The notes: generated by a model not told the origin, from the sequence alone. A stretch of DNA of 64,000 bases from Nitrosopumilaceae archaeon (GCA_965200155.1 CBDATR010000043.1:65858-129857); one strand, 5' to 3'; shown: positions 29,360-55,081, counted from the stretch's first letter. Made by a program: numbers and translations.

Positions 29360-32227
29360 GTGCCGCCGCAAATTGCCAGTATTTTTGATGTCCTGCCTGC
29401 AACACTACTCAAGGTCGGATACTATTGGGATGATTACGGGTTCAAACTGGGTGAGAAAGCTGCCATAGTCGCGATGAAGGCCAAGAATCGCGGTGAAACA
29501 GCATTCATAGAACGATTACATAAAGACCTACAAGGTGTAGTCAGCGATACAATAACGCGAGATGATACTATAGATGCTATTTCACAACATATCGTACTGG
29601 CGCCTGTCTTTGAGGCGCTTTTCGGGCAGACAAGTAACCCAGTTTGGAAGGCGTTTAACCATGTAGCAGAAGAATTAGACTTTAGTACGGAATTAGATGA
29701 TTTAGAAGAGTGGCACCAATTAATGTGGTACCATGTTGAGAATATAACAAATCCACAGGCAAAGCAGAATGTAATAATCAAGGTATATGGTAATTTCTTT
29801 AAGGGATTTGACAAAAAACAGGCCAAGACCATAGTATACACGCCTGTCGAAATAGTGGATTTCATTATTCAATCGGCACAGTATGTATTGGAGTCAGAGT
29901 TCGGAACAGGGTTCGATGGGAATATTCGCGTGTTGGATCCTTTCGCAGGAACCGGTGTATTTCTGGCTCGGTTGTTAGAATCAGGTCATTTGGGTACGCA
30001 TCCAGCAGAGATGCTTTTTGGTGAGAACAAGTTATTAGCATATTATACCGCGTGCGCAAATCTGGAAACCACAATGGAGAAGGTGACAGGGATTAGCACT
30101 CCGTTCATGAATGGTTCATACGTGGATACATTCACAATTCCGCCGGATTGGCTGGAGTTAAAGGCGCAGGGTAGGGCACATGTACAATCCATGATAGATG
30201 ACACATTATTCCGCAAGGCGCGCGGGCTTGTTGATAAACAGCGGGACAAGCGCATAATAGGTAATCCACCATACTCTGGTGGGCAGAGAACCGCCAACGA
30301 GGACAAGAAGAATGATTCCCACCCCATTCTAGAACCACGCATAAAGAATACGTACATTAGAATGGCGCCCAAGGGGAATAAGAGGGGATTATACAATTCA
30401 TATGTCAAGGCCATTCGTTGGGCATCAGAAAGAATCGGGGAGTCGGGAGTAATCGGTTTCATAACACCCTCTGGTTTCATCACAGGGAATAGTGAAGCTG
30501 GTATACGCGCCTGTCTTGAAATGGAGTTCACTGATGTGTACTGCTTTGACTTGAGAGGTGATGTGAAAAAAAGTGACTGGCGACGTGAGGGTGGCAAGAT
30601 ATTTGGGAGTGGCTCAACTGTGGGTACCGCTATAACCATCCTGGTGAAGAACCCCGCCAAACATCATTCTACGATTCACTATCATGGCATCGGCAACTAC
30701 TTGAGTAGAGAGGAGAAGTTGGAAATCATAAAAGAGCATGGTTCCATTGCAGGAATGGAATGGGAGATTATAACACCGGATCGATTCCATGACTGGTTAG
30801 AACAGCGTGGCGATACCAGTGAACAGTGGGATTCCATCACTCCAATGGGGAGTAAAGAGGGAAAGCAGGGGGAGATTGGTGTGACGTTTGGTGAATATTC
30901 ACGCGGTCTGGCTACTTCCAGAGATCCATGGGCATACAATTCATCCATTGATAAATTGGAAAATAATATGAAGCAACACATCAACTATTGTAACGGACAA
31001 GATTTGAATAATTTTGTGGTTGATCCAAAACAGGCGAAAAAGAATAGTTCCATGATAGAACGCATGAAAAAGTTGGGCAGAAAGGTGGACTTTGATAAGA
31101 ATAAAATACGTACAGTGTTGTATAGACCATTTTTCAAGCAGTATCTGTATTTTGATCCAATCTTTGTTCATGAGCCGACTGTGGTTTCACCATTCTTTCC
31201 AACCGGTGGCTCCAAGAATATTGCCATCATGGTGGCTGACAAAATAAAGGGTGTGTTCTCCACGTTTGTAACAGGAATAACACCGGATCTACACATCCAC
31301 GAGGCATCCCAATGCTTTCCCATGAGAGTCAAGAAACAAAAGGACAAGAATAGACATGTGGTAGGTAACCAGTCAACCAGTCAACCAGTCAACCAGTCAA
31401 CCAGTCAACCAGTCAACCATCGAGAACCTGGCGATAATAGTCCCCGACAAAATAAAGGGCGAATTCTCAGTATTCATAACGGGAATAACACCGGATCTGG
31501 AAGTGGTGCATCACGGGCAGGTATTCCCCATGTTCACACAGTCACCGGAGGTGACGAGATGAAGGACAACATCACCGACTATTCCCTGGAACTATACCAG
31601 AAACGATATAATGATGACTCCATAACTAAAGAGGACATATTCTACTACACCTATGGCATTCTACATCATAATGGTTATCGTTCCAAGTATCAAGCATTCC
31701 TTGTTAGGGGATTACCGAATATTCCCATGGCGCCTGACTTCCGTGCCTTTGAGAGAGCAGGGCGTCAGTTAGCTAACTTGCACCTGAATTATGAGATGTG
31801 CCCCCGTTATGATCTTGGTGAACCATTATCTCCAATACCGGACGCGCCAAAAAAGATAGCCTTTGGTAAGAAACCAAATAGAACCGGTTCCCCGGGCCCC
31901 AAAGACAAACCGGATCCGTCAACCATCATAATAGACGGCCAAAAGATATACAATAACATACCATTAATCAATTACAAAGTGAATGGTCGTACCCCCGTGG
32001 GCTGGTTCGTGGACAGATACCAGTACAGGGAGAACATAGAAAGTGGCATCACCAACTACCCACTGGAGGGTGCCACCGGTGATGAAACACGCGCCATAAT
32101 AGAACGGTTAGTATACGTTGGAATGGAGTCAGATAATATCATAACCAACCTCCCAACTGAATTCGAGATGGAACTGGAACAAGAACCAACCGGCCTGGAC
32201 AAGTACTACAAGGCGCCCATTCCCTAA
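29360..32227 (+). CDS. Open MTase-TRD half of the type ISP enzyme
   Basis: 955-aa ORF containing MTase motif I (FAGTG), motif IV (NPPY) and the ISP C-terminal domain. Confidence 0.75.
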   Translation: MPPQIASIFDVLPATLLKVGYYWDDYGFKLGEKAAIVAMKAKNRGETAFIERLHKDLQGVVSDTITRDDTIDAISQHIVLAPVFEALFGQTSNPVWKAFNHVAEELDFSTELDDLEEWHQLMWYHVENITNPQAKQNVIIKVYGNFFKGFDKKQAKTIVYTPVEIVDFIIQSAQYVLESEFGTGFDGNIRVLDPFAGTGVFLARLLESGHLGTHPAEMLFGENKLLAYYTACANLETTMEKVTGISTPFMNGSYVDTFTIPPDWLELKAQGRAHVQSMIDDTLFRKARGLVDKQRDKRIIGNPPYSGGQRTANEDKKNDSHPILEPRIKNTYIRMAPKGNKRGLYNSYVKAIRWASERIGESGVIGFITPSGFITGNSEAGIRACLEMEFTDVYCFDLRGDVKKSDWRREGGKIFGSGSTVGTAITILVKNPAKHHSTIHYHGIGNYLSREEKLEIIKEHGSIAGMEWEIITPDRFHDWLEQRGDTSEQWDSITPMGSKEGKQGEIGVTFGEYSRGLATSRDPWAYNSSIDKLENNMKQHINYCNGQDLNNFVVDPKQAKKNSSMIERMKKLGRKVDFDKNKIRTVLYRPFFKQYLYFDPIFVHEPTVVSPFFPTGGSKNIAIMVADKIKGVFSTFVTGITPDLHIHEASQCFPMRVKKQKDKNRHVVGNQSTSQPVNQSTSQPVNHREPGDNSPRQNKGRILSIHNGNNTGSGSGASRAGIPHVHTVTGGDEMKDNITDYSLELYQKRYNDDSITKEDIFYYTYGILHHNGYRSKYQAFLVRGLPNIPMAPDFRAFERAGRQLANLHLNYEMCPRYDLGEPLSPIPDAPKKIAFGKKPNRTGSPGPKDKPDPSTIIIDGQKIYNNIPLINYKVNGRTPVGWFVDRYQYRENIESGITNYPLEGATGDETRAIIERLVYVGMESDNIITNLPTEFEMELEQEPTGLDKYYKAPIP
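31367..31419. repeat. (aaccagtc)6 simple sequence repeat in the TRD region
   Basis: Six perfect 8-mers plus a partial unit, between two homologous TRD segments. Confidence 0.95.
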
Positions 32228-34807: not shown

Positions 34808-34881
34808 TTTTTTTCTCAGTTTAAGTTGGCTCACGCGTTCAGATGCCAACCCGGCTTTGTGCGGCAGAGCCAGAGGACTAC

Positions 34882-35848
34882 TATAGCGGTCACCATAAGT
34901 CTTGGAATGGTAAAGGGACCAGTTCTATGTTAATCGTACCGTCATCTAGAATCACTCCCTGACGCGCTGGGCCGAAGTTATGGGGGAGTCATTCCAGTTC
35001 AACATGCCGGTGAATGTTTTTCATGACTGGAGGAAGTGGACATATTCGACTTGCCGGAATGATATCCTGGTGGCAGATATCGGCGAGCCTGTTTACGCGC
35101 GCCAGTTTCATCCATATAATGAGGAATGGTGATGGTGGCGCCGATTGGTTGAGTGAGATATAATTCCGGTATGATAAGATGGATGCATCAGGCGCGTTTA
35201 TGAGGATAACATCTCGCGCCGCCGCAAACAGAATCATTCTGTCGTGTCCAAAGCCACCAATCCGGCGCAATTCTCGTGAATTGTACTTGCCGGGCATTGG
35301 TGTCGTAACCTGGGACATGCTGGACGCAAGAGAACTGTTCCAGGAGAGCGCGATTCATATCAACAAACGGGAGAAACCACTTAGGCTGCAAGCATTTGGT
35401 CTTCACGGCCGGCAATCATACGGGAGATGCGTTACCACTAGAGTAAGACAGAAGGCGAACGATTCCATGAATAGCATACAAGGTAGTCATCGAGAACTTG
35501 TCAGATCATGGTGGGAACAGGAATCGTTCCATGAGAGAGAACCGCGTTGGTGGATTCTTACAGAAGTCGGGGGATTGAATTGGAGGCGGTACCGGCCAAG
35601 ACTGGTGGGCATCATTCCAAGAAAACTAGGGACACATTCAAGTGCAACCAGGAGTTTCATGCCGATATCAAAGAGTAACCGGATGAGGTGGCAGGGAACC
35701 GTTTCTCACCCATGCAGGGAGCCATTCCCGTCCAACCATCGGACTGTTATTCAAACAGTCCAACCGGAGGCGCCAGGACGTAATGTAGAGCAATGTACTG
35801 TCCAGAAGCGAGGCGCCACGTTCACAAAGAGTTATGGTGACCGCTATA
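34882..35848 (+). mobile_element. tnpB: TIR-flanked degenerate tnpB element, copy A
   Basis: tatagcggtcaccataa ... ttatggtgaccgctata; fragments RVRQKANDSM and FKCNQEFHADI. Confidence 0.8.
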
Positions 35849-36263
35849 CTGGTCTCTCGCTATGATTGCCGATTCCCTCTTTTGCAACTCGTCTATCTCG
35901 CGTGTTATCCTACAGACTTCCTCTCTTCCACTGACTATTCTTTTCAATATGGGCCGCGCCTCCGGACTAGCCTTCTCTAACATCTTTTCAAATATGTCAT
36001 AACATTCTTCCAATCGTTCTATTTTGTTCATGAAATGAATCATGAAATTTACATTTAAGCGTGATTTTTACCACTGTAACAAACAAATCATTCCAACATG
36101 TCAGAAGTTGACGATCTCATGGAAAAGTGGAAAAATCTAGAGGCACAACACAGAGATTTGGAACATTCAAAACATGTGTTACGGGATTTTGATAAAGAAG
36201 AGCTTGATGTAATCACATATGCACAGAACATGATCATGAAAGATATCGAGTGGATAAAAAACA

Positions 36264-36355
36264 GTATGAGTTCACCTGTGTCTAAATTTACGCATAACTG
36301 ATCGCGACAGTTAATGTGATTTGTGTACAAGATTCCGGAAGACGTGAACTCATAC
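36264..36355. mobile_element. 92-bp MITE (no TSD, fused to an IS66 remnant)
   Basis: Consensus copy. Confidence 0.92.
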
Positions 36356-36926
36356 TCACAGACAGGTACGCCGTGTATCGCCGGTTTGATGACGGTGGGA
36401 AGCACCATCTGGGCGCATTTATTGCGCGATACCAGTATATTACATGCAGGATTCTATATCGATCCCGGTGATCAGGACGCCCGGATCAAACTTGACAACG
36501 ATTTGAAAGAATTGTTCCGGAGCGCACGTGAATCGCTGCGGGCCGTCCGCGCAATTACGACACTCATTTGAGGCAGGAGCAGATGCATCAGTACTGTGAT
36601 GTTGAGGATACTGAACTGCAAAAGAAGGTAAAAGGATTGAATAAGGCCATACCAGGCATGTTCGTATTCCTAGAATATGACAGTGTGGAGCCGACCAACA
36701 ATCCAGCGGAGCAGTGGAACCGGTTCTGATACGCAGTGGTATTACGTAAGATTAGTGGTCAGATAAAGAGTGGTGAAAGGGCCATGCGCCGCATGTCCAC
36801 ATGTGTTCAGAGATGGCGGGCTCAGGGCCTTTCTGTAATGAACGAGGTTGCTGCCAGAATGCAATTATAATTAAAAACTGGGATGCATTCTATCTTATTA
36901 TATGATCAAAACACGTGAACTCATAC
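36356..36926 (+). mobile_element. IS66 3' remnant
   Basis: Degenerate match to 43910-44501, ending in the TIR. Confidence 0.9.
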
Positions 36927-37321
36927 AAGATATGACATGGTGGACTTGCCGCCTATCTTCCCGCTTGTCCCTATTATGGAGTATAGTCGTTCATTGATAT
37001 CGGCGATCTCACCCCACCAGGCCTGATCAACATCATTCAATGTCCATGTGTCCTGGAATGATGCACCGGCCGCCTTGGAGCCTATGGGGGCGGCATAGTT
37101 ATGCTTGGGTATGAGTTCACGTCTTCCGGAATCTTATACACAAATCACATTAACTGTCGCGATCAGTTGTGCGTAAATTTAGACACAGGTGAACTCATAC
37201 ATGCTTGGAGTTGAAGGGCGGATCAAGGTATATCAAGTCTATACTATTCTTTTCCATACCGCGCATTATACTAAGATTGTCGGCCACAAAAATGGTCCTG
37301 TTCTCGGGGGGGGGGGGTCAT
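36927..37321 (-). pseudogene. Beta-class N6/N4 DNA methyltransferase, 5' fragment with poly-C tract after the start codon
   Basis: ENRTIFVADNLSIMRGMEKNSIDLIYLDPPFNSKH|NYAAPIGSKAAGASFQDTW; interrupted by a MITE and truncated by IS66. Confidence 0.85.
37109..37200. mobile_element. 92-bp MITE
   Basis: TSD atgcttgg. Confidence 0.95.
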
Positions 37322-37594
37322 GTAACTTGATAATTCATTTCTGTGCTATTAAGGTGGTGTTTTATCAATTGATTTCCAATATGTTATAGGTAAGTACGAC
37401 GTGTAAGTCACCGGCTTGCTGGGCAGGAATGGCCATGGTGTCTATGACGCCTCCCTTGAAAGACTGGCGTGCCTACAGATTCCACACTAATCGATACATG
37501 ACAAAAATATCATACACGGGCTCGCCGCCGATCTGGTTCCATCAGTAATGGTAACTCATTGAAATGAGTAATCAAGATTAGGTTGCTCACCGTA

Positions 37595-38915
37595 TATAGC
37601 GGTCACCATAATTACGTGGCGCCTCGCTCCTGGACAGCATGGCTTTGCGTTCCGTCCTGGCGCCCCACGGTTGGGCGGGGAATGGTTCTCCGCCCCGTGC
37701 AGGGGAACCGGTTACTAAACGCGGCATTGATATCCGCGTGAAACCCCTGGCTACATGTGCCCCTAGTAACATGTCTGGCCGGTATTCTTGACCGGTACCG
37801 CCTCTAATTCAATCCCCCTACTTTTGCTCTACCTTGCGCCGGAACTCGCCCACCCGGTTCTCGCGCATCATTCTATTCATGGAACGTTTCCGGTTGCCAC
37901 CTTTCCTGGTCATGGGTTCTACCGACAAGTCCTCGATGACCACCTTGTCCACACCTTTTGTGACAGCATGACTCATGGAGTCATTCGCGATGTTGTTAGC
38001 TTTCTGTCGTAATCGTGATATCTTTTTGCGGTTCTTGCCCTTTCTTGTTCTAATACTCTGGAGTGCGCGTATTATCGTGGCGCCTCGCTCCTGCTGACAC
38101 CCCAATGGAAAAACTTCGAAACTCGCGTGCTGGAGTGCGCGTATTATCGTGGCGCCTCGCTCCTGGACAGCATGGCTTTGCGTTCTTTCTTGTTCTAATA
38201 CTCTGGAGTGCGCGTATTATGGAACGATGTCTCATATCATGGATTGCCGTTAGTGACTGCCACGTGTTTCCCGCCGACCTCGAACCACACCAGTCTTGAC
38301 ATGTTGGAATGGATTCTCTCGCTTGTTGATGTGGATTTCGAATTTACGTTCCCTACTCTTGGTGACATGTTCATAGCATGTCCCAGGATGGGTCAATCGG
38401 TTAACCAAGGCCGCGCAAGCCTAGCTCGAACTTACCGCGTCTAGTTGGTGGGTCTTTCATCCTCACGATATGGAATGAATTCCGAGCAATCCTCATACTG
38501 ACGCCTGTAATATGGCACCGCGAGCATATGCTACTGGTAACTCGCGTAACCATTACGGCGCCACTTGGTTAATTCCAGGAACAGACCATTCCTGATTATC
38601 GTTTTAGATCGTGGGAACTCATTCACGTATAATGAGTCACCTTCTTTAGTCCGTATTGTGGACTCATTCTTATTCCTGGAACCACCCTTACTCTTGTCCG
38701 GATCGTGCTTGAATAGCGCCGGTCATATAATGGACATGATATCGGCTACTGATCGGTTGTACACAATGCTTGTTCATCACTTCTATCCATTGGTCTCAAC
38801 GGTAGTATAACGGTTCATGGGACAATTCCAGTAGTTGTATGGTCCTATGCCGGACTATTCCATGGAATGATTCTATGGAACGATTCTATGGCAAGGACTT
38901 ATGGTGACCGCTATA
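37595..38915 (-). mobile_element. tnpB: TIR-flanked degenerate tnpB element, copy B
   Basis: 17-bp TIRs; VDKVVIEDLSVEPM..KRSMNRMMRENRVGEFRRKVEQK and FHADINAA RuvC segments. Confidence 0.85.
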
Positions 38916-39178
38916 CCTACTGTTTTGCTTATGCTTACCGGATTTTGTACCATGAAAACACGCTTCAATTCATAGCGACTTGGACGGTTACTGTTACTGC
39001 CTATCCATTTACACTGTATGTGGTGCCTGCGGCATATTTTCTGGCCAGTTGTACACAAGATTGATGTATACACTGACCACAGATGATTAGGATGATGGTT
39101 GAGCAGCTCACCCATGCATCTAAGATGGGTTCATCACTCATGTGCGGGTGTGCCATCTTGCGGCTCACATAGAGTACT

Positions 39179-39655
39179 CTAACGGAAGTTTTTACATTTG
39201 ATTTTTGTTTCATCTAAGTGTCCCGCTCTTACTGCATCATTTAACAATTTTTTTACACTTTTCTGGTTTATATGCACACGTTCCCCTGCATAAATTATCT
39301 CGGCCATCTGTGCCAACTGCATTATTGCTAGGTTATCAATATCATAATGTAAACCATTGACATCGCTGTCTGGAGTATCTCCAGTAATGCATTGTGGAGA
39401 AATACCAATGGATTTTAGATCATTACCCCCAAACATAGTATAGTCTATAGGACCAACACATTTCCTGGTGGCCGCAATGGCTATGGCCACTCTTTGATGG
39501 CCCACTTCATCCCGAACCTCAAAAACTGATAGACTACAATTGTCCTTGGTTTTCATGTCAAGAAGCGCGTCACAATGCAATCCACTATCTCCTGCCAAGT
39601 TGGATTTACTGCCTTTCCATCTGTTATGTTTGACTATCCTCAGAAATTTCATCAT
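39179..39655 (-). CDS. Hypothetical protein, possible ART/RES-like fold toxin (third gene of operon)
   Basis: R near the N-terminus, SLSVF, GDTPD..N..HYDI; overlaps the upstream gene. Confidence 0.55.
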   Translation of the reverse strand: MMKFLRIVKHNRWKGSKSNLAGDSGLHCDALLDMKTKDNCSLSVFEVRDEVGHQRVAIAIAATRKCVGPIDYTMFGGNDLKSIGISPQCITGDTPDSDVNGLHYDIDNLAIMQLAQMAEIIYAGERVHINQKSVKKLLNDAVRAGHLDETKIKCKNFR

Positions 39656-40430
39656 CCGAATTAAACGATGTAATTACCTCTTTGATGTATTGTTTAAACC
39701 ACTTAACTTCCTCCTTCTCATACGCGCGCTTAAGGTTGTGTATGGCCTTAGGGTCTTCCAAGGCATCAATACCAATTAATGCCGCATCCCGTATGTATAC
39801 GTCAGTAGATTCCAGTGCCTGCACCAGCAACGAGAGTCTGGCATCATGGGTTTTGTCATCACGACTATTTCCGATCTGTATTAATGCTTCTTGTTTCACA
39901 TCTTCTAGTACATCGTCCTTGCGCATAATATCCTGAATACGCCCGATGGCTTCCATTCCATATTCACGAATCACTCTATGTATGGTGGTCCGAAAGTTAC
40001 TATCCATTCCATACTCAAATATCTCGTCATTATTGTAAAACATCTCATGCAGTTCTTTTGTCAGCGCATCTCGATCATATCTGACCCGGACTGTATGTGG
40101 TTGAATAGATGCATTGATAGTTGGCCAAATACGCTCTAGTGTTTCAGCATCAGAGGTGTAATGTGACGATTCCCGTCCTGTTCTATCTGATTTCAACTGC
40201 CATCCGCCGCTAAACTCGCTATGAAGCATTCCATGTTCTGATTCCCGTCCTGTTCTATCTGATTTCAACTGCCATGGTTTAATCAAAGTGACGACCTTAT
40301 GTGGTGTTTCTATCTGTCGCAGTTCTTCACATCCAACGTTTTCCCAATCTTTCGTAAAGTTTATCCGTTTTGTACTAGTGACGTAATTATCACCTGCCTT
40401 AGGCGATGCGATCAACGTACTATTGGTCAT
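39624..40430 (-). CDS. HEAT-repeat domain protein
   Basis: VKQEALIQIG, LESTDVYIRDAALIGIDALEDPKAIHNLKRA; internal 36-bp duplication. Confidence 0.75.
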   Translation of the reverse strand: MTNSTLIASPKAGDNYVTSTKRINFTKDWENVGCEELRQIETPHKVVTLIKPWQLKSDRTGRESEHGMLHSEFSGGWQLKSDRTGRESSHYTSDAETLERIWPTINASIQPHTVRVRYDRDALTKELHEMFYNNDEIFEYGMDSNFRTTIHRVIREYGMEAIGRIQDIMRKDDVLEDVKQEALIQIGNSRDDKTHDARLSLLVQALESTDVYIRDAALIGIDALEDPKAIHNLKRAYEKEEVKWFKQYIKEVITSFNSDDEISEDSQT

Positions 40431-41134
40431 CTATCCCCCCTACTTGCTATATCTCGTCCTTGTTCTACTAATTCGCTGAATATATCATCTGCATCACTTC
40501 CGGTGACTGTTTTATACAATGGTGTGGTGTTTATATCTAGTTCCAGCATACAAATGGTTGTAGCAGACTCTGGTACGTTATCACCTCTCACCCTTACACT
40601 CCATTTGTTTAAGCGATTGATTGTGATATCCGGGTTTACTTTGGACTGCTTCGGGCGATTAATTTGATAGAAAAAGTTTGTTGTATCCTGCGGGTACATC
40701 TTCACATTTGTAAGGTATGGTTGGATCTCCTCGTATCCTGTTTGTATGCTCGCTGTTGGTCTCACAAGAATAGCCCCAAATGCTAGCCTCTTTGCAGGAG
40801 GGCACCTTGAGAACCAATTTTTTACAGTCATTAGAAAAGGTTCCAGTGTGTGATTAGTCATTGGGCTCGACACAGGTACCGGTGATTCGTTTGTTATTGT
40901 TTCAAGAACCCAATCTACCCTGTCAGACTGGCTAATCAAGACTAGTTTGTTATTACCTAGTGGGCCTATCTGCTCTTTTGAGTTGTGTTTGTGGTCGATG
41001 TGTTCTTCCTCCGGATTCTTGTCAATAGTTTCATGCCACCAAGTATTTTTTATAGCATAATTTGTGTTAGTATTATCAATGAACGTAGTGGCCCTGAGCT
41101 GACCAATCAACCACTCACTAGTTGCCACTAACAC
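40427..41134 (-). CDS. Hypothetical protein resembling the TIGR04255-like family
   Basis: DRVDW, RLAFGAIL, QINRP, INRLNKWS, LELDINT pattern; first gene of an overlapping three-gene operon. Confidence 0.55.
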   Translation of the reverse strand: MLVATSEWLIGQLRATTFIDNTNTNYAIKNTWWHETIDKNPEEEHIDHKHNSKEQIGPLGNNKLVLISQSDRVDWVLETITNESPVPVSSPMTNHTLEPFLMTVKNWFSRCPPAKRLAFGAILVRPTASIQTGYEEIQPYLTNVKMYPQDTTNFFYQINRPKQSKVNPDITINRLNKWSVRVRGDNVPESATTICMLELDINTTPLYKTVTGSDADDIFSELVEQGRDIASRGDR

Positions 41135-41261
41135 CGCGTCCCCCTTGTGAATATGTCCTCGTAGTCAAACCTGTCATAATATATGCCGAGCCATTTTTAA
41201 ACACTTTGAGGCTTGTTAAATGACTGACTTTGATCTAACTTCTTCTGTCGTACTTTGGGCA

Positions 41262-42444
41262 TATAGCGGTCGCCATAATTACGTGGCTCCTCGCTCCTGG
41301 ACAGCATGGCTCTTATTCCCGTCCTGGCGCCCCCTGGTTGGGCGGGAATGGTCGCCCCCTGGTTGGGCGGGGAACGGTTCCCTGGTTGGGCGGGTAAACC
41401 GCCCCCCGGACGACACGCCCCGTGCAGGGAAACCGGTTACTAAATGCCGCGTTGATATCGGCATGAAACTCTTGGTTACATCGGGTACAGTAACCGGTTA
41501 CTGTGCCCCTAGTTAACGTGCCCACAAGAATGGCTGGTATTCTTGGCCGGTACCGCCACCAATTCAATCCCCCTACCCAGCTTGTGTAAGAATCCACCAA
41601 CTCGCGCATCATTCTATTCATGTAACGTTTCCGGTTCCCACCATGTACTTGACTGACAAGTTCTCGACGACTACCTTGTCAACTCCTTTTGTAACAGAAT
41701 AGACGATTCTGTTCATGGAGTCATTCACTATATCGTTCCCCTTATTACGGTTCTTACCCTTCTAATACCCTGGAGTGCGCGTATTATGGAACGATGTCTC
41801 ATGTCATGTGTTCCCGTTAGTGACGGCCACGTGTTTCCCGCCTACCTCGAATAACGCCGGTTGGTACATGTGGTTCCTTTCACGCTTATGTGAACCTTGA
41901 ATTCGCGCTCTCCTGGAACGGTTCTCTTACGCTAGCATGTCCCAGGAATAGTCAATCGGCTTTGTCGTCCTCACGACACCAATGCCCGGCAAGTGTAATT
42001 CACGAGGTCCGCGCCGTTTTGGTGGCTTTGGACACGACAGATCTTTGCGGCGGCGCGGTATATTATCCTCGTACACTCTCCTGCACGCGACTGATGCATC
42101 CATCTCAACCACGGGTATTCATGGCGCCACCTTGGATATTTTGGTGGATGAAACTGGCGCGCGAAAACAGGCTCGCCGATATCTGCCACCAGGATATCAT
42201 TCTTAGGCAAGTCGAATGTTTCCACCACTTCCTGTAATGAATTCCTCGCTGAACATTCACCGCCATGTTAAACTGGAAAGCCCGCCCATTATCTCGGCCC
42301 GGCGCGTCAGGGAGTGATCTGGTTCCAGTTGTACAATGATGGTACGAACTATTTTTGACATAGAACCATTCCAGTACTGGAACCATTCCAGGACTGGTCC
42401 CTTTATGGTCATGTACCATTCCAAGACTTATGGTGAGCGCTATA
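41262..42444 (-). mobile_element. tnpB: TIR-flanked degenerate tnpB element, copy C
   Basis: TIRs tatagcggtcgccataa / ttatggtgagcgctata; VVVENLSV, MNRMMRE, CNQEFHADINAA. Confidence 0.85.
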
Positions 42445-42449
42445 GTAAT

Positions 42450-42733
42450 GTATGAGTTCACGTGTTTTGATCACATAATAAGATAGAATGCATCCCAGTT
42501 TTTTAATTATAACTGCATTCTGGCAGCAACCTCGTTCATTACAGAAAGGCCCTGAGCCCTCCATGTCTGAACACATGATACGAATGTGGACATGCGGCGC
42601 ATTGCCCTTTCGCCACCCTTTATCTGACCACTAATCTTGCGGAATACCACTGCGTATCGCAAAGCCTGCTCCACTGGATTGTTGGTGGGCTCTACACAGT
42701 CATATTCTAAGAATACGAACATGCATGGTATGG
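42450..42733 (-). mobile_element. IS66 3' fragment truncated by the adjacent IS66 copy
   Basis: Matches 4109-4393. Confidence 0.9.
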
Positions 42734-44501
42734 GTATGAGTTCACGTGTTTTGATCATTCACTAAGATATAGATTGGTATGGCAATATTTTACTTAAATA
42801 CCAAATTTGCAATAAGAATCTAATGAGAAGACGCCGGTCCTATAAGGAATTGGAACTGGAAAATAAACTTCTTCAGGATACCCTTGCGTCTACCGAGAAA
42901 GATCTTGCACATTACAAGGAACGTGTGAGAGTATTGGAAGCATATGTGTCCCGCACCACAAAAGAAATACGAAATCTCACACAAGATTTCCAAATTATTA
43001 GGAATTATGTAAATGAATTGAATGAGAAATTAAAAGAAAAACAGGGGAAAATTGCGGTACTCACAACGCGACTTAAATATTATGAGAATGCTCACTCGCC
43101 ACCATCCCTTCAATCCCTCCAGTACAAGAAGCGAAAACAGGAGGAACAGAAGCAGGGAGATAATAAGAAACAGAAAGAAGCCAGTACGAAATCAGCCAAA
43201 AAGGCTGGCGCTCAAAAGGGACACAAGGGGGTTTCCCGTTCCCACAACCCCGGCAGAGTAGTGCATCACACCTTTGAGTACACACCAATATGTGAGTGCG
43301 GCAATATAATGACAAAAATTGGTTGGAAACAACGACACATAACGGAATTAATACCAGCCAAAATAGAGGAGACCCTTCATGTGATAGAAATGGCTGCATG
43401 CAAGTGCGGCAAAAAACAACTGGCCCCAGCAGCTGGCGTCCCAAAGAGTGGTGATTTTGGAGTTCAATTATGCGGTGCCATCACTGCATTGCGTGCGGAA
43501 AAGATTCCAATAAAACGCATACCTGTAATTTCGAAGGATCTCTTCGGCCTGAATATATCTGTGGGTGCGGTAAACAACATAATTGCCGTATGAGTTCACC
43601 TGTGTCTAAATTTACGCATAACTGATCGCGACAGTTAATGTGATTTGTGCATAAGATTCCGGCAGACGTGAACTCATACTAATTGCCAGGGCCGCCGATG
43701 CATGCGAATCATTTATGGAAACAATTCATGAGAATATAATAAAATCACCCAGCATTCATGTGGATGAAACTGGTATATCACTGGCGGGTAGGCGTGGCTG
43801 GGTATGGGGGATGCGAGCCGAAGAGTGGATGATGTCCATATATGACAAAAGTAGGAGTTCAAATGTAGTGAACAAATACCTGAACGGTTACCAGGGAGCG
43901 ATAGTAACGGACAGGTACGTTGTGTATCGCCGGTTTGATGACGGTGGGAAGCACCAGTTGTGTTGGGCGCATTTATTGCGCGATACCCAGGCATTACATG
44001 CAGGATTCTATATCGATCCCGGTGCTCAGGACGCCCGGATCAAACTTGACAACGACCTGAAAGGATTGTTCCGGAGCGCACGGGAATCCCTGAATCACTG
44101 CGGGCCGTCCGCGCAATTACGACACTCATTTGAGGCAGGAGCAGAATCCATTCTGCATCAATACTGTGATGTTGATGATACTGAACTACAAAAGAAGGTA
44201 AAAGGATTGAATAAGGCCATACCATGCATGTTCGTATTCTTAGAATATGACTGTGTAGAGCCCACCAACAATCCAGCGGAGCAGGCTTTGCGATACGCAG
44301 TGGTATTCCGCAAGATTAGTGGCCAGATAAAGGGTGGCGAAAGGGCAATGCGCCGTATGTCCACATTCGTATCATGTGTTCAGACATGGAGGGCTCAAGG
44401 CCTTTCTGTAATGAACGAGGTTGCTGCCAGAATGCAGTTATAATTAAAAAAACTGGGATGCATTCTATCTTATTATGTGATCAAAACACGTGAACTCATA
44501 C
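42734..44501 (+). mobile_element. IS66 copy with transposase (42823..44443) disrupted by its own MITE
   Basis: 24-bp TIRs; ORFs 42823..43593 and 43715..44443 rejoin when the MITE is removed. Confidence 0.95.
43588..43679. mobile_element. 92-bp MITE
   Basis: TSD taattgcc. Confidence 0.95.
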
Positions 44502-44596
44502 CATTACTTTGCTGCGCAAACTAACTGCCCCGAAGGGGCGCACGGAAAAAGCCTATGCTAAAACTAGTCGCCCCAAGACTTATGGTGACTGCTATA
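44502..44596 (-). mobile_element. Isolated end of the IS630 element
   Basis: Nearly identical to 48488-48582. Confidence 0.85.
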
Positions 44597-45787: not shown

Positions 45788-46094
45788 ATATTTGGTATGA
45801 GTTCACGTCTTCCGGAATATTATGCACAAATCACATTACTGTCGCGATCAGTTATGCGTAAATTTAGACACAGGTGAACTCATACAAGTCTAGGACATCC
45901 AACCATATGGAACTTGTTACCCAGTAACTTGTGGTGACTCATCACTCCCTGTGGGCGGGGCATTCCGGTGTAGCCATTCTATAACCAAGATCAACCATTC
46001 CTGAATGGGTGCCACCTCACCATTTTGATGAGTTACCAAAATCAAGCGGGATGACAGCTTGTGTTCCGGTGTTAAGCCATCAAAATATTCACCA

Positions 46095-47546: not shown

Positions 47547-48582
47547 TATAGTAGTCACCATAAGTCTTGGCGGTGACTTTCCATAGAATGTCACGACAAA
47601 GATGGTGGACAGGCTAAATCATGATGAGTTTAGCGGCGGGTCATGACTACAAACGCACAAAATACACCACTTAGTGGCGTGAAATGGTATGTGGGTAGCC
47701 GGGTTGTGTTATGATATGTTTCACACCGCTTGAACCGCCTCGTTTCCCATCCATGATTGGTACCTCCGGCGGCTTTCTGTTCCAGAATTTGTGTTGTGAT
47801 ATACTTGTGGTCGTCAATATTTTATTGGGTATACTCCTGAATTCCTCGACTGGATTCAGGTACGGATGTTTGGTATATGGCCTTTTTTTGAGGTGTACTA
47901 AGTATAGAATAATCTTGCCCACCTTTCATGAATATCCATGATTTTGTAATCAAGACCCTTACATGGAGAACCGGTATTATCCACCTGTCCATGCCATAAG
48001 TACGCGCCTGCCTCCTGTGTCGCGCGGATAGATGGGATTCATCATCGGCGTAGCCCAGCTTTTTGTAATGGGCAACTGTTTGGAACATCTTTTGTATGAG
48101 TTCACGTCTTCCGGAATCTTGTGCATAAATCACATTAACTGTCACGATCAGTTATGCGTAAATTTAGACACAGGTGAACTCATACCATCTTTTGCCTCCA
48201 TTCCTGGAACGGTTCCATCGAGTCCCGGTTTGTGGGAGCAACCTGATTGTGCTCAGTCTTGTGCCGGATAGGTAATCCTGCATACGTGAGTTTGCGCTCA
48301 CATTTTGCCCTTCTCCAGCAAACTACTCTGGGCCTGTTAGTCTCCCTGCTGTATCTAACAGTGTGTATATCACACTGTTGCAGCTTGCACAAATACCCAG
48401 TGGGCGCGCAATTTGCACGGAATACTCGCTTGCCTGAATTTGGCGCTATTCATTATACAAAATCGAAATTTTTAACTTTTCATATGCCATTACTTTGCTG
48501 CGCAAACTAACTGCCCCGAAGGGGCGCACGGAAAAAGCCTATGCTAAAACTAGTCGCCCCAAGACTTATGGTGACCGCTATA
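47547..48582 (-). mobile_element. Degenerate IS630-family element
   Basis: 24-bp TIR tatag(t/c)(a/g)gtcaccataagtcttgg with terminal TA; fragments with DESH and PYLNPVEE (the IS630 P-x-LNPIE motif). Confidence 0.75.
48094..48185. mobile_element. 92-bp MITE
   Basis: TSD catctttt. Confidence 0.95.
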
Positions 48583-50128: not shown

Positions 50129-50598
50129 GGCGAACAGCAATAGGTGAGATAGTATCTGCGGCCATCATTCTTGGTACAACCGCGGTTGTCGCTACTATAA
50201 TGCTAAATATACTAAGTGAGCAGGCGCAAACCACCACCGATGACATGCGCTCACGGCTTGATATCATGCGTGCACAGGCAGTGGAACAGCTGGATATCAT
50301 AAGTCGGGCCGACACAAGTGGTGAGGCGACATTCATTGTCATTAATTATGGTGACTTCCCGACCAGTATACCATTCCTGATATATGATAAGCATGGTATT
50401 AACATACAGGGCGACGTCAAGTCATACATATTACAGAATGGTACTGACATATGTACGGGCTCATACGTCTGCCCCACGCCCTACACCGAGTCGCTGGATA
50501 TCGGCGAATACGTGCAAGTGACAGTACGGAGCGCCGCGAATAAACACCTTATACTAGTCACAGACACGGGGAGACCTCTTGAGACTTCTAGTCCCTAG
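50125..50598 (+). CDS. Archaeal type IV pilin-like protein
   Basis: Class III signal MRRTA/IGEIVSAAIILG, xINYG and C-terminal LVTDTGR motifs. Confidence 0.8.
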   Translation: MRRTAIGEIVSAAIILGTTAVVATIMLNILSEQAQTTTDDMRSRLDIMRAQAVEQLDIISRADTSGEATFIVINYGDFPTSIPFLIYDKHGINIQGDVKSYILQNGTDICTGSYVCPTPYTESLDIGEYVQVTVRSAANKHLILVTDTGRPLETSSP

Positions 50599-53500
50599 TG
50601 TAGTGGTTCTGATTCTACTACCAACCACTCTTACATATGGTAATGACTGGGAGAGTGTTTTTGGAGTGATAATGTCGTCCACACTCAATGACGGCTCACC
50701 CGGTACCAAGTCGGATACAGGTCCCCTAGGATGCACGGTAAGTGCAACTCATAAATATCATTGGTATCTCTCTGATACAACCCAGGCACGTAATAACTCC
50801 CCGCGGGAAACATCGTTATACCCCGGTGATCTTGTAAGGGGAACTTACAAATATGAAGAGAAGAATTGTGACTGTGGTTATTCTATAACGGGGCCAACAG
50901 CTAGAGGTAATTGGTCAGAGATGACGGGACTGTCTCTTATACAGGACGGATTTAATTACATACAGAATATGAAGATATTAATTAATGAGCCTGTCCCCGG
51001 TGCCAAAGTTCAGAACGGTGACCTACACATAACGGAGTATGATAATGGTGGCCGGAGCCGTTCCCACATACATGGAGTAGTTCCGGAGGTTGGTTATACA
51101 AGCGGGACAGAATTTACCATTACCGGAAAAGCAAAGAATAGTCAGAATATTTGTGTTGTAGATGCAAAAGTAACACTTTATACCAAATTTCTCTATAGAA
51201 CGCCCTTCTGGGAAACAAGCATACACGAGCACCATGTAATGACACCGGACGGTTTCCCTGCACTGAATCTGGACTACTCCAACTATTATCATGATTCCAT
51301 GCCACTGGAGGCCGGTTCCAACTGGTTATTCGATGACTACCGCTGGGAGACCATCACCGTAAAACATGAAGTGAATAATCAAAGAATGATGTCACAACAA
51401 CACTGTGAGAGTCGTTCTTGTGAGATTGACATACCAGAAGTACTACCATCTAATGCATATGTCGGGCATGGTTCTTTCAATGGAATGGCAAAGAATCAAC
51501 CATGGGATGGAGTAACAACCGGTTTACTGGATAATAATGAGTCCATGTTTTTCCTAGCGGCGCCACAGGATACCACTGAGATAAAAGTTCAAACAGTAAT
51601 GTATAATGATGGAAAAGAGATAGCAAGGGGTTTCAACTCTACATACCAGTTCATACCGGACTATAATGCTACACTCAATTTAACACCGATCACGAATACG
51701 GCTCTAGGTGAGGAGACCCCACTGAAAAGGCCGGTATCACTAATCATACAGTATAACGGGACCATACCTGATACACTTCATTATTGTTCCACCGGAATAG
51801 TCCATGACTCTAATGGTAAGGCGCTAGCTGTTGGCGAGTATGGGGGAGCGGATAATTGGGGCAGGGTGGCCGGGGATCTATGCCCGGAGGACCCTGATTA
51901 TCTATTCAAGAATGAGTGGGACGCGTCTCAGTGTGTCACGAATGATAATTGCTCATATGTGGTGCACCCGCCTACTCCCATATCTTCTGAGTGGGGCCGC
52001 TGGAGTGCCGTGAATCCGGAGACGCGCGCCAATTTTTATAATTTCACCGGCCAGCATACCATATGTCCGGAACCCTGGAATACTACAATGATACCAGAGT
52101 GTTCCAGTTATGAGACGGATTACAAAAACTGGGATTACGTGCCACAGACCAGTCGCGATTTCATACCAGCATGTCTGATGAGTCAGATCGCCGCCATGGA
52201 TGTGAACAAGAACCAGCCACGTCATGACACCTGGTGGAAGACCGGCAATCCTGACGATACAGAATACTCTTACCGGGGATTATGGGTGGACATAGATGAT
52301 GGACAGGTAATAGTACCCGCTAATCGCACGCATGACTATTACATTATTGATTCACTACTCTGTGAGGAAAAGGCCGGACCCCGTGACTGTGTGGAACGGG
52401 GCTCATTATGTGAGGAACGATTTGACAGGATATGTGAGTCTGTCTTTGAGCCATTCTTGTATCCTGATGACTATTCCATCACCGGCCATGAAAGATTCCA
52501 GGAAATGGTTTACAATGATGAAGAATACCAGGAATGTATCAAGGATACACGATCACAAACATGTGCCAGTGAAACATACAAGCGGTTGGATGATTTCCTG
52601 ACACACCGATGTAGTGACATTCACATGGTAGACACGCATACACAGATTATTGACACATCATTCTATGGTGGCGGCAGTTTCACATCCGCTTACACATGTC
52701 ATAACGCATATGCAAATCGCTGGATAGAGGTTGTTAATAGTGATGTATTGATAGATTGGGAGGCCAACATTAATGGCCCAACCCTGTCCGGTTCCGGTAC
52801 ACACGTACAACCCCAATGGGATAATATACCGCAATCCATCTATGTCCCATATACTCCCAATACGGGCGCCTTTGTGGGTATAGAGGAACGTCCTGGGAAT
52901 ATTCTGACTGATGACGGGAATATCACATGTGACTGTAAGGATAAGAATGATGACGGTATCTGTGATAGAGTGGGCAAGGACCTGAATAATAACGGGATTG
53001 TAGATAGCTGGGACCCACTAACTCGTGATGGTGACATTCTATGCCTTGACAGGACAGGATTAAAGGAAAATCATGAAGATACATGTCTGGCATTATACGG
53101 ACGTGACAAGGGGGACCCGTACCATTCCTGTATGGCTGATGCCCCCAATGACGGGCCAGACGGCCGTTGCAATCCTGCAATGATAGAGCATCCGGACTTT
53201 GCAGATGGCATACCATACCTGGATAGTGACGGGAATCACCTGTATTGTCAAGATAATACTGGTAATTGCCTCTCGTCCGGTGACACATATGAGGTACATG
53301 AGCAGTATGATATCTGCCAGGACCCACAGACACCTATCTCAATTAAAAGAATACCGGCCCCGGCCAGTATGCCACCATTATACAAGCCGGTCTTTGATGA
53401 GCGGTGGCCGCCGGAATGCCTGCCAGATTACCCTGTGGGTGAGTGGGAGAGACCAAGTCATGATGTCTCCCTTGACTTTGCCCACCTGGACGGGGTAGAG

Positions 53501-55081
53501 TGGGCGGTCGGGAATTCCTCATACATTGGTTTTGAGGTTGCAGAGGATGACACCAGAACCATGCTACTACATGCTGGGACGGGAGTGATACGGTTCGAGG
53601 CCTGCCCTAATTGCTCCCATAATAGGACTGATGACGGTTACTGGAAGGGCGGGTTCACCACTCAGCTTGGCGGTAATCTGACATATTATAATGGAATAAT
53701 TCACCATCCGACATTCCTGCAGAGAAGTTCCAGCATGGTCGAGGTAATGGCAGTGAAACCCGGCGGCGTTAATGATTCTTGTGTGGCGGGGAGTGATTCC
53801 ATACCCTTCTGCCTGCAGGATGATGATGTCATACTAACACTGACGGCATACCCGCACATGGAGAGGCCAGTAGCTGATGAAACCCAGATGGCCGCCCACG
53901 AATGCCAGATAGACGGGGATAACCATTCCTGGTTCTTTGGACTTGGTGGCTTTGCCGTTGATTTCATCACGCCTACTGTTCCGGTACCACAGATAAGAGA
54001 ATACTGGAATGACATGTCATGCCGGGATGGATTGGGAATATCATTAACAGTCCAGGACTTTGAGAATGCCTTGCATGGCGTAGCAGCTAAAAGGGAGTCA
54101 GGACAGCCATGGACTGTTGCGAACGGGACCGGCAGGGTAGACATGGATGTATTCCGGAATGGTCTCTGGCTGAATACTTTGGCCATTCTAGAACACCGTG
54201 GTATGTGTACAATGTATACGTGGACCCAGAACGTGACTGATGGTGCGTCAACATGTCCTGATACTACAACATTACTGGATGCATGTATAAGGGAGACAGG
54301 TGATATCCGGGGATGTCTGGGAGTACACGCAAAGAATGACTCATGTTCCAATACAAGGGACGGCAGGCAGTATGCAACGACTGATAGAGCGAATCTCACA
54401 TGCAGTGGTACTGGAATACTGGAGACAGATATACCATATAATGAAGTAGATTGGGGACGGGGTGGCAGCTATGCATGTCAGGAGGTACAGGCCTGTGAAG
54501 AAACTGAAACAATCTACAAGTGCATGGCAGGCCAGATAGTGGAGCACACAGTATGCATGGTGCCAGAAGAGACCTTTGATGTAATTATGATGCCGTACGA
54601 TGAGGTCATGTCGAACAAGACGCCGCAAATGTTACATATCGAGGCAATATGGAACCAGATACCAGTCTACGACACCCATATACTGGGCGGCGCCATGAAT
54701 AATGGAACAGTCGACAGGTTCTTTGTGGACTATTATGGGGTAGGGGAATTGAACATATATCGTACAAGTCCTGGCTCCCAGACCATAATTCTAGAGGTGC
54801 CGGAGACATTTGGTGACATCAGAATGATAGAGTATAATGATATCATTCAAGAGGTAGAGTGCTCGCCGTGCATTATACAGTATGAGCCCGCCGCCACAAT
54901 AACGGTGTGGAATTTGTATAACGGGACACTAACGGCGACGGTGGATAGCTCACATACCACATTGGGCAACATAATAACGACTGACGAGATAACGGGCGCC
55001 CTGTGGATTTATGCGCCTACCATAATAGCAGCTGCAGGTATCATTATAGTATTGAGGAGAGTTATCAAGTATGGGAACTAG
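50579..55081 (+). CDS. 1500-aa Cys-rich cell-surface protein (putative adhesin / mating-pair stabiliser)
   Basis: Signal peptide, many Cys, Ca-binding-like DKNDDGICD and DLNNNGIVD, C-terminal TM followed by RR. Confidence 0.8.
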   Translation: MRLLVPSVVVLILLPTTLTYGNDWESVFGVIMSSTLNDGSPGTKSDTGPLGCTVSATHKYHWYLSDTTQARNNSPRETSLYPGDLVRGTYKYEEKNCDCGYSITGPTARGNWSEMTGLSLIQDGFNYIQNMKILINEPVPGAKVQNGDLHITEYDNGGRSRSHIHGVVPEVGYTSGTEFTITGKAKNSQNICVVDAKVTLYTKFLYRTPFWETSIHEHHVMTPDGFPALNLDYSNYYHDSMPLEAGSNWLFDDYRWETITVKHEVNNQRMMSQQHCESRSCEIDIPEVLPSNAYVGHGSFNGMAKNQPWDGVTTGLLDNNESMFFLAAPQDTTEIKVQTVMYNDGKEIARGFNSTYQFIPDYNATLNLTPITNTALGEETPLKRPVSLIIQYNGTIPDTLHYCSTGIVHDSNGKALAVGEYGGADNWGRVAGDLCPEDPDYLFKNEWDASQCVTNDNCSYVVHPPTPISSEWGRWSAVNPETRANFYNFTGQHTICPEPWNTTMIPECSSYETDYKNWDYVPQTSRDFIPACLMSQIAAMDVNKNQPRHDTWWKTGNPDDTEYSYRGLWVDIDDGQVIVPANRTHDYYIIDSLLCEEKAGPRDCVERGSLCEERFDRICESVFEPFLYPDDYSITGHERFQEMVYNDEEYQECIKDTRSQTCASETYKRLDDFLTHRCSDIHMVDTHTQIIDTSFYGGGSFTSAYTCHNAYANRWIEVVNSDVLIDWEANINGPTLSGSGTHVQPQWDNIPQSIYVPYTPNTGAFVGIEERPGNILTDDGNITCDCKDKNDDGICDRVGKDLNNNGIVDSWDPLTRDGDILCLDRTGLKENHEDTCLALYGRDKGDPYHSCMADAPNDGPDGRCNPAMIEHPDFADGIPYLDSDGNHLYCQDNTGNCLSSGDTYEVHEQYDICQDPQTPISIKRIPAPASMPPLYKPVFDERWPPECLPDYPVGEWERPSHDVSLDFAHLDGVEWAVGNSSYIGFEVAEDDTRTMLLHAGTGVIRFEACPNCSHNRTDDGYWKGGFTTQLGGNLTYYNGIIHHPTFLQRSSSMVEVMAVKPGGVNDSCVAGSDSIPFCLQDDDVILTLTAYPHMERPVADETQMAAHECQIDGDNHSWFFGLGGFAVDFITPTVPVPQIREYWNDMSCRDGLGISLTVQDFENALHGVAAKRESGQPWTVANGTGRVDMDVFRNGLWLNTLAILEHRGMCTMYTWTQNVTDGASTCPDTTTLLDACIRETGDIRGCLGVHAKNDSCSNTRDGRQYATTDRANLTCSGTGILETDIPYNEVDWGRGGSYACQEVQACEETETIYKCMAGQIVEHTVCMVPEETFDVIMMPYDEVMSNKTPQMLHIEAIWNQIPVYDTHILGGAMNNGTVDRFFVDYYGVGELNIYRTSPGSQTIILEVPETFGDIRMIEYNDIIQEVECSPCIIQYEPAATITVWNLYNGTLTATVDSSHTTLGNIITTDEITGALWIYAPTIIAAAGIIIVLRRVIKYGN

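Follow-up and report, generated by a model that had tools for sequence, protein, structure and literature searches.

Decayed tnpB elements between IS630-type inverted repeats in a Nitrosopumilaceae archaeon and their intact relatives in sister genomes

A stretch of 64,000 nucleotides (nt) from a Nitrosopumilaceae archaeon (GCA_965200155.1 CBDATR010000043.1:65858-129857), hereafter the window, carries three relics of the nuclease gene tnpB, each of which is enclosed between terminal inverted repeats that also bound remnants of IS630-type transposase elements of the same genome. Taken together with the dozens of copies found outside the window, these elements are probably non-autonomous members of an IS630-type family, which would have been moved in trans and would have spread after tnpB broke. 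They may be described as the relics of a derivative of an IS630-family (Tc1/mariner-type, TA-duplicating) insertion sequence, resembling a miniature inverted-repeat transposable element (MITE), whose sole cargo would be a TnpB-omegaRNA cassette made up of a promoter, tnpB, and a guide-RNA scaffold that overlaps the gene at its 3' end and extends into the right repeat. The window is C43:65858-129857 of an assembly (G000) of 2.38 Mb in 51 contigs, which is 87.6% complete; G001, G005 and G006 denote sister genomes of the same genus.

Terminal repeats and element ends

At up to 3 mismatches, the sequence TATAGCGGTCACCATAA is matched nine times in the window, as compared with a mean of 0.25 after shuffling, nine matches being reached in 0 of 100 shuffles. 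Four inward-facing repeat pairs are present, at 34882/35848, 37595/38915, 41262/42444 and 47547/48582, and all four have TA at their start and at their end. Throughout G000 the 17-bp repeat has 65 matches at no more than 1 mismatch (reversed control, 0), and there are 24 inward-facing pairs less than 4 kb apart, 23 of which have an outer TA on both sides. The aligned copies give a true repeat length of 22-24 bp, TATAGCG..CACCATAAGTCTT, with 0-2 mismatches between the two arms. When an intact 450-amino acid (aa) TnpB of a sister genome was used as a tblastn query, matches were obtained in the third pair (element 3, E = 3e-26, query residues 117-412), in the second (element 2, E = 4e-20) and in the first (element 1, E = 6e-6), so that these three elements are tnpB relics; the same query found no tnpB similarity at 47547-48582. 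The repeat counts and the tblastn matches confirm an original prediction, made on this DNA, that a 17-bp repeat with TA bounds three tnpB-bearing elements.

Element 1 (34882..35848, plus strand) is a relic of 967 bp belonging to a short subfamily, with 0 mismatches in both repeats, and it is 89-90% identical to C35:24047-25240 and C22:56966-58055, with which it has the same deletions in common. Element 2 (37595..38915, minus strand), of 1321 bp, has its left end, on the 5' side of tnpB, at 38915 and its right end at 37595; it is 72% identical to the consensus of the long subfamily, and its left end is closer to the long type. An internal duplication of this element (window 38060-38200) joins a portion of the omegaRNA-like 3' segment to an inner piece of tnpB. 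Element 3 (41262..42444, minus strand; 1183 bp) is again a short-subfamily relic, in which the stretch from CxxC to FHADINAA is kept in one frame. The fourth pair (47547..48582, no strand assigned) is a deleted copy of an IS630-type partner element, and a solo IS630-type end at 44580..44596 (minus strand) adjoins the end of an IS66-family element.

The classes of ends, namely tnpB left, tnpB right, the two IS630 ends and the ends of a 91-bp MITE, are alike only over approximately their first 24 bp. Twenty-three long left ends, 22 long right ends, 5 short left ends and 13 and 15 ends of IS630 type were collected, and the short left end is distinct from the long one, the short subfamily including elements 1 and 3 of the window. 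The 8-nt flanks are all different, in 23 of 23 long left ends and in 22 of 22 long right ends.

It could be argued that the repeats surround tnpB by chance, or by the simple nesting of a tnpB element between or inside independent IS630 MITE ends, as the region is indeed a dense nest of IS66, IS630 and MITE copies. Against this, dozens of copies in unrelated surroundings have the same pair of left and right ends at a constant spacing from tnpB, which we count as refuting such an origin, and no second set of ends occurs inside the elements; chance or nesting thus appears extremely improbable. The dozens of copies, each with unique flanks, support the view that repeat, tnpB and repeat together make up the transposing unit. 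Two observations that the original prediction had named as damaging to it, MITE ends flanking tnpB by chance and IS605 hairpins just inside the repeats, were both looked for and neither was found.

Identity and decay of tnpB

The frames of the window elements are matched by Pfam below the cut-offs, with OrfB_IS605 at 23.1 bits in element 2 and TNB at 14.6 bits in element 3, and element 1 has no Pfam match. Better-kept paralogues in G000, tested as four pieces of which two gave matches, exceed the cut-offs (PF07282, 39.6 and 32.9 bits with a cut-off of 26.3; PF01385, 38.4 bits with a cut-off of 30.5). The intact relative is an ordinary TnpB by Pfam; among solved structures it is closest to TnpB-type chains (E = 3e-12 and 7e-12), and a TnpB-like protein of a giant virus is reached only at E = 6e-4.

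Among the 20 TNB matches in G000, none lies in a frame longer than 349 aa, and the RuvC motifs VDVGG, VLEDL and HADINAA occur in separate frames only, so that no single open frame carries the D-E-D residues. A common 8-nt deletion junction is present in 24 copies, with loss of the second CxxC of the zinc finger and a frameshift just before RuvC-III; one fragment retains the ancestral in-frame zinc finger and ends, at C10:490277, in the same kind of repeat. Thirteen long copies have a mean identity of 88% (range 76-99%) and yield a majority consensus of 1473 bp, which is still frame-broken, with 111 and 309 aa in two frames, and several deletions are common to four copies of the short subfamily. 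Because the 8-nt deletion and the short-subfamily deletions are held in common, most or all of the amplification would have taken place with a dead tnpB, that is, after the gene had been broken. To judge from their frames, the window copies are dead passengers. The non-autonomous, IS630-mobilised TnpB family of the original prediction therefore keeps its first half, a unit moved by IS630, and loses the second, the spread of a working TnpB family, since 24 copies have one and the same frameshifting 8-nt deletion. Intact copies, which had been proposed as a check, were not found for this lineage in the G000 assembly; intact relatives, approximately 50% identical, are found in sister genomes on ends of another type (see below).

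Programmed frameshifting at the common 8-nt deletion was considered and dropped, as there is no recognised slippery pattern and a second frame break is present. The stops within the G000 tnpB relics are mostly TAG, which is far commoner than TGA or TAA.

The transposase behind the elements

Partner elements with the same repeats contain pieces of DDE_3 (IS630/Tc1-type) transposase in neighbouring frames, scoring 25.1, 23.6, 20.8 and 20.3 bits in the genome search, and a C-terminal DDE_3 piece at 21.1-22.6 bits by hmmscan. The fullest partner copy, which holds DDE_3 pieces, is C13:13691-15735, and the pair at 47547-48582 matches it by blastn in its ends and in small internal pieces; the claim that the repeat also bounds a remnant of an IS630 transposase element at this place is borne out in the form of a deleted copy. 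DDE_3 transposase is absent from the tnpB elements themselves. As only the outer 22-24 bp are common to the tnpB elements and the transposase-bearing elements of the same genome, the tnpB elements would have been moved by an IS630 transposase supplied in trans. The closest outside relative of this transposase, among the best seven matches of a search whose query contained a MITE insertion (approximately 150 irrelevant MITE matches), is a decayed frame of 172 aa in G005 with 51% identity, and the end beside it agrees with the G000 repeat at 16 of 22 positions.

The elements could also be read as ordinary tnpB-only members of the IS1341 group of IS200/IS605, moved by peel-and-paste, the 5' flank motif described below being a TnpA target and the likeness to IS630 incidental. 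They do share with this group a length of about 1.47 kb, the presence of tnpB alone, a putative omegaRNA at the 3' end that overlaps the gene, and a 5' flank motif which is asymmetric and subfamily-specific, as IS605 targets are. They differ from it in their ends: perfect inverted repeats of 22-24 bp, common to DDE_3-bearing elements and to the MITE, are accompanied by a flanking TA, and the relatives in sister genomes have clean 8-bp duplications (12 perfect among 18 pairs), which peel-and-paste does not make. Subterminal hairpins are likewise missing, the 100-nt ends, taken as single-stranded DNA, folding no better than shuffled sequences (z from -1.4 to +2.0), and hairpins of the IS605 type just inside the repeats, which would have signalled nesting according to the original prediction, were thus not found. 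None of 5 genomes of the genus (G000, 87.6% complete; the others 96-99%, three of them single contigs at 99%) yielded the Y1 transposase TnpA (PF01797), in a search whose control was positive in 6 of 14 known genomes, and DDE_3 has 23-67 matches in each of five sister genomes. The IS200/IS605 reading is, in our opinion, already largely refuted, and very unlikely to be right.

Several observations weigh against movement of the tnpB elements by an IS630-family transposase in trans, which we propose from sequence comparison. All the partner pieces score below the DDE_3 cut-off of 28.6 bits and stops occur in all copies, and the 87.6%-complete assembly yielded no intact IS630 transposase bordered by such ends. 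The duplication of TA is itself inferred: the search for empty TA sites, suggested in the original prediction, gave a single paralogous site, for C35:24047-25240, which has exactly 2 nt between the flanks, as would be expected, and these are GT and not TA. The assembled contigs of four public runs contained no bridged clean empty site, being broken at the repeats, with short sides of 21-33 letters at the joints on the repeat edges. Finally, a one-sided 5' flank motif is not expected of a DDE transposase alone.

Elements 1 and 3 are partly represented among the contigs of two metatranscriptome libraries, which is no demonstration of transcription. A wide scan for TATAGCGNNCACCATAAGTCTT, from which records of the window's own lineage were perhaps left out, gave one match in 185,579 species genomes and one in metagenome contigs, with approximately one chance match expected; both matches come from one peptidase-gene region in a methanogen lineage and have no partner repeat.

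Intact relatives and the change of chassis

A 201-aa piece of tnpB used as query finds matches in 12 of 41 genomes, including 8 of the 9 other members of the genus, and the intact protein, at E ≤ 1e-40, finds matches in 6 of 301 genomes of the class, five of which, G000 counted, belong to this genus. Many intact copies are present in G005, where the open frames comprise 453-493 aa and the identity to the G000 relics is about 50%, and more are found in G006 and G001. The elements of these intact relatives have the same length, 1472 bp, and their ends consist of GGGAATTATATAC and 10 subfamily-specific bases that covary between the two ends; an 8-bp duplication (≤1 mismatch) accompanies 13 of 18 pairs of the G005/G006 type. 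Inverted repeats were not found around the single tnpB copies of G178 and G007, and a search of viral contigs with a single query gave no relatives of the intact TnpB. In G015, which represents a different genus within the family, the C-terminal half of tnpB is matched 28 times, in open frames of 275-733 aa (e.g., locus L052), mostly longer than 550 aa and thus much longer than the usual TnpB.

The repeats of the two groups of elements are not the same. In five sister genomes the 17-bp G000 repeat is no more frequent than its control, the G005-type repeat has 0 matches in G000, and the homology between G000 and G005 elements extends over the gene and the 3' helices, ending within the repeats. 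Since the G005-type repeat is absent from G000 and the homology ends within the repeats, the G000 elements are not simply whole G005-type elements nested in an IS630 MITE.

No transposase was found near solo matches of the G005-type repeat, and a search with a 13-mer led to an IS1595 element of 2.7 kb with the same ends, G005:C1:1770047-1772736 (locus L096, G005:C1:1769747-1773036, at 301-2990). It has inverted ends of 35 bp, an 8-bp duplication (CAATTTTA), a DDE_Tnp_IS1595 match of 138 bits and a zinc ribbon at 24.8 bits (cut-off 25.4), and its passenger is a DNA methylase-HNH fusion gene. The 13-bp end of IS1595 type is common to three TnpB types in G005; the two further types (L095, L097 and L085) have 445 and 476 aa, the second being about 27% identical to the main type. 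As the ends are of IS1595 type in the sister species and of IS630 type here, the TnpB cassette in this genus would be a passenger of DDE transposons. The cassette of G000 would descend from the TnpB clade that is intact in sister genomes on IS1595-type ends, its chassis having changed at least once.

The 3' end and its omegaRNA-like helices

The last 230 nt of 13 G000 copies, the three window copies among them, were aligned with those of 6 copies from G005 and 4 from G006, making 23 sequences, drawn from three genomes. Their consensus structure comprises 21 pairs, 8 of which show changes on both sides; 98.4% of cells pair, as compared with 36-56% when the partners are slid, and the covariation score is 0.372, as compared with 0.106 at most, a value reached in 0 of 500 shuffles being the outcome for the score of 0.372. 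As caveats, these counts rest on the alignment that yielded the structure, on related sequences and on a region that is partly protein-coding. Rfam gave 0 matches on the window and four loci.

In element 1, helices 3 and 4 lie at 35769..35817 on the plus strand (GGCGCC.GGACG ... CTGTCC ... GGCGCC), 31 nt upstream of the element end. In element 2 they lie at 37618..37664 on the minus strand, in the conserved 3' segment which the original prediction had put forward as the end of an omegaRNA, and in element 3 at 41285..41331, also on the minus strand, as given by the consensus structure and its pair counts. To helices 3 and 4 this conserved segment contributes the 3' strand, and it is followed by a short linker and the repeat up to the element boundary. 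Given that only this linker and the repeat separate the helices from the boundary, the repeat would be the last part of the scaffold. Fanzors offer a parallel, the terminal repeat being described in the relevant sections of one study as the 3' end of the guide-RNA scaffold (PMC10711439). Because the two helices to which it contributes covary with intact relatives, the conserved segment behaves as expected of an omegaRNA end, and the proposal finds support; the omegaRNA itself is putative.

A one-sided motif in the 5' flank

Outside the TA of the long left end, the 23 flanks, all different, carry G at -1 in 21 cases (p = 8e-12), and position -2 is T in 17 of them and position -3 is T in 14. At the short left end, AC occupies positions -2 and -1 in 5 of 5 cases, preceded by T at -3 in 4 of 5; the resulting TAC, directly before TA, is found in the window at 34879..34881 (plus strand) for element 1 and, read on the minus strand, at 42445..42447 for element 3, and resembles a target-adjacent motif (TAM). 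No comparable motif was seen at the long right end (n = 22; at best 10 of 22) or at the IS630 ends (n = 13 and 15). In the intact elements of G005 and G006, the flank that directly precedes the left 8-bp duplication shows G at -1 in all 13 cases, and T at -3 and A at -4 in 10 of 13 each, and no motif follows the right duplication. At the same position, C is found in the single IS1595 transposase element, and A and T in the two copies of a third TnpB type. Since IS630 ends with the same repeat have no motif, and relatives on another chassis have a motif of their own, the motif tracks the type of TnpB and not the type of repeat. It also lies where a TAM would be expected if a guide ran from the right end across the duplicated target.

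This arrangement admits of an extension, in which TnpB and its omegaRNA would be coupled to a DDE transposon, in the sister genomes even now, the 5' motif would be a putative TAM, elements would be kept or copied where TAM and target meet, and dead copies would use a TnpB in trans together with their own omegaRNA. The restriction of the motif to tnpB left ends and its correspondence with the TnpB type speak in its favour, as does the order of TAM, duplicated target and right flank, which is the geometry that a guide read from the right end would match in an empty site. A comparable arrangement is described for Fanzors, where, in the parts of the literature dealing with it, the guide-RNA scaffold includes the repeats and the duplication, and the 5' duplication counts as a part of the TAM (PMC10711439; PMC13565253). 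Conversely, tnpB was already broken when the 24 long copies and the short subfamily spread, so that the nuclease would have to come in trans from a copy no longer seen; a break or a footprint stays behind after cut-and-paste excision, and the known argument for homing loses force; the controls are small, comprising one IS1595 transposase element and two copies of a third TnpB type; and the TAM is a putative one, read from the flanks. On balance we hold the extension to be a speculative one, less likely than not. The broader conclusion to which it would lead, that TnpB-omegaRNA cassettes live only on minimal ends (13-24 bp) of resident DDE transposons, with chassis swapped, and that the nuclease decides where DDE-moved elements persist or are copied, is equally tentative, and we rather doubt it. 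Should it be true, it would provide a prokaryotic counterpart of Fanzor biology, with intact copies on which it can be tested.

Neighbouring elements and genes

The dense nest of IS66, IS630 and MITE copies in this region of the window includes a MITE of approximately 92 bp with the ends GTATGAGTTCAC, at 36261-36355, 37108-37200, 43587-43683, 45792-45885 and 48088-48188, which has hundreds of sites in the genome and makes up most of the 513 loci matched when four MITE-containing tnpB elements were searched against it. Its ends are identical to those of the IS66-family element at 42733-44502, the transposase of which is found in two open reading frames, 42823-43593 (zf-IS66, 22 bits, below the cut-off of 27.3) and 43715-44443 (DDE_Tnp_IS66, 112.8 bits), the split having been made by an inserted copy of this same MITE. 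Farther away, positions 29360-32227 hold a Type ISP restriction-modification gene (Type_ISP_C, 237.7 bits), and 50579-55081 an open reading frame of 1500 aa with no Pfam match. The public runs that contain the stretch are labelled as sponge metagenome or as coded organisms.

Relation to known systems

MITEs and IS630 deletion derivatives have only the terminal repeats in common with their autonomous element, insert at TA, and are amplified in trans and then decay, a pattern that the tnpB elements would follow. The tnpB elements differ from MITEs in being much longer (1.0-1.6 kb) and in carrying a foreign gene cassette, and a true MITE of 91 bp with the same repeats is also present in G000.

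The association of TnpB with Tc1/mariner-type repeats had been regarded in the original prediction as characteristic of the eukaryotic Fanzors, a view that is outdated, as IS630-linked prokaryotic TnpB proteins have been published. The main text of Altae-Tran et al. (2023; PNAS, PMC10691335) describes DDE-6, a large branch of TnpB proteins associated with IS630 transposases and a helix-turn-helix (HTH) protein; the ends are symmetric, each of the six DDE-linked groups has inverted repeats, and solo TnpBs bounded by these ends are taken there as moved in trans. In the sections that bear on this point, a 2026 review lists ISL2, IS630 and IS1031 as DDE partners (PMC13565253), and in a preprint IS630 figures as a control only (10.1101/2023.03.14.532601). 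A first prokaryotic case is therefore not supported, IS630-linked TnpB being known since 2023, and what is new is the host and the form. As in DDE-6, a prokaryotic tnpB lies between symmetric inverted ends of IS630 type, with its 3' end near the end of the transposon, and solo copies occur; unlike what the same source reports for DDE-6, the elements described here have neither a transposase nor an HTH gene in cis (1.47-kb element), the host is an archaeon, and all copies are pseudogenes (PMC10691335). The occurrence of the nearest intact relatives on IS1595-type ends would point to a separate capture.

The term IS1595 is absent from the main text of PMC10691335, and one of its supplementary text files, which gives transposase model names only, has 0 matches for DDE-6 and none for IS1595. 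Publications that name both TnpB and IS1595 do not, by title and beginning of the abstract, treat IS1595 as a carrier; figures and most supplements lay outside this search, which is thus no proof that such carriage is unreported.

With Fanzor1/Fanzor2*, as far as the relevant parts of the published descriptions go, the elements share a gene of the TnpB family within inverted-repeat and often non-autonomous elements, target duplication being a probable further likeness (Yoon et al., 2023, PMC10711439; PMC13565253). Other likenesses drawn from the same parts are a repeat that would end the guide-RNA scaffold, a TAM-like motif adjoining the duplicated target, and the independent capture of the gene by transposons of different families (PMC10711439; PMC13565253). 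They differ from Fanzors in their prokaryotic host and in their ordinary TnpB of about 450 aa, for which the best solved relatives are TnpB-type chains.

The role of TnpB in DDE cut-and-paste transposons is mostly discussed with regard to Fanzors and a small number of prokaryotic branches. The dead copies of the window are minor in themselves, and they lead to a natural comparison set, a narrow TnpB clade on two DDE chassis, with intact multicopy relatives in sister genomes, a clear autonomous IS1595 partner, and a one-sided motif that tracks the type of nuclease. Through this set, the TAM, the role of the repeat in the guide RNA and the effect of TnpB on insertion or retention become directly testable.

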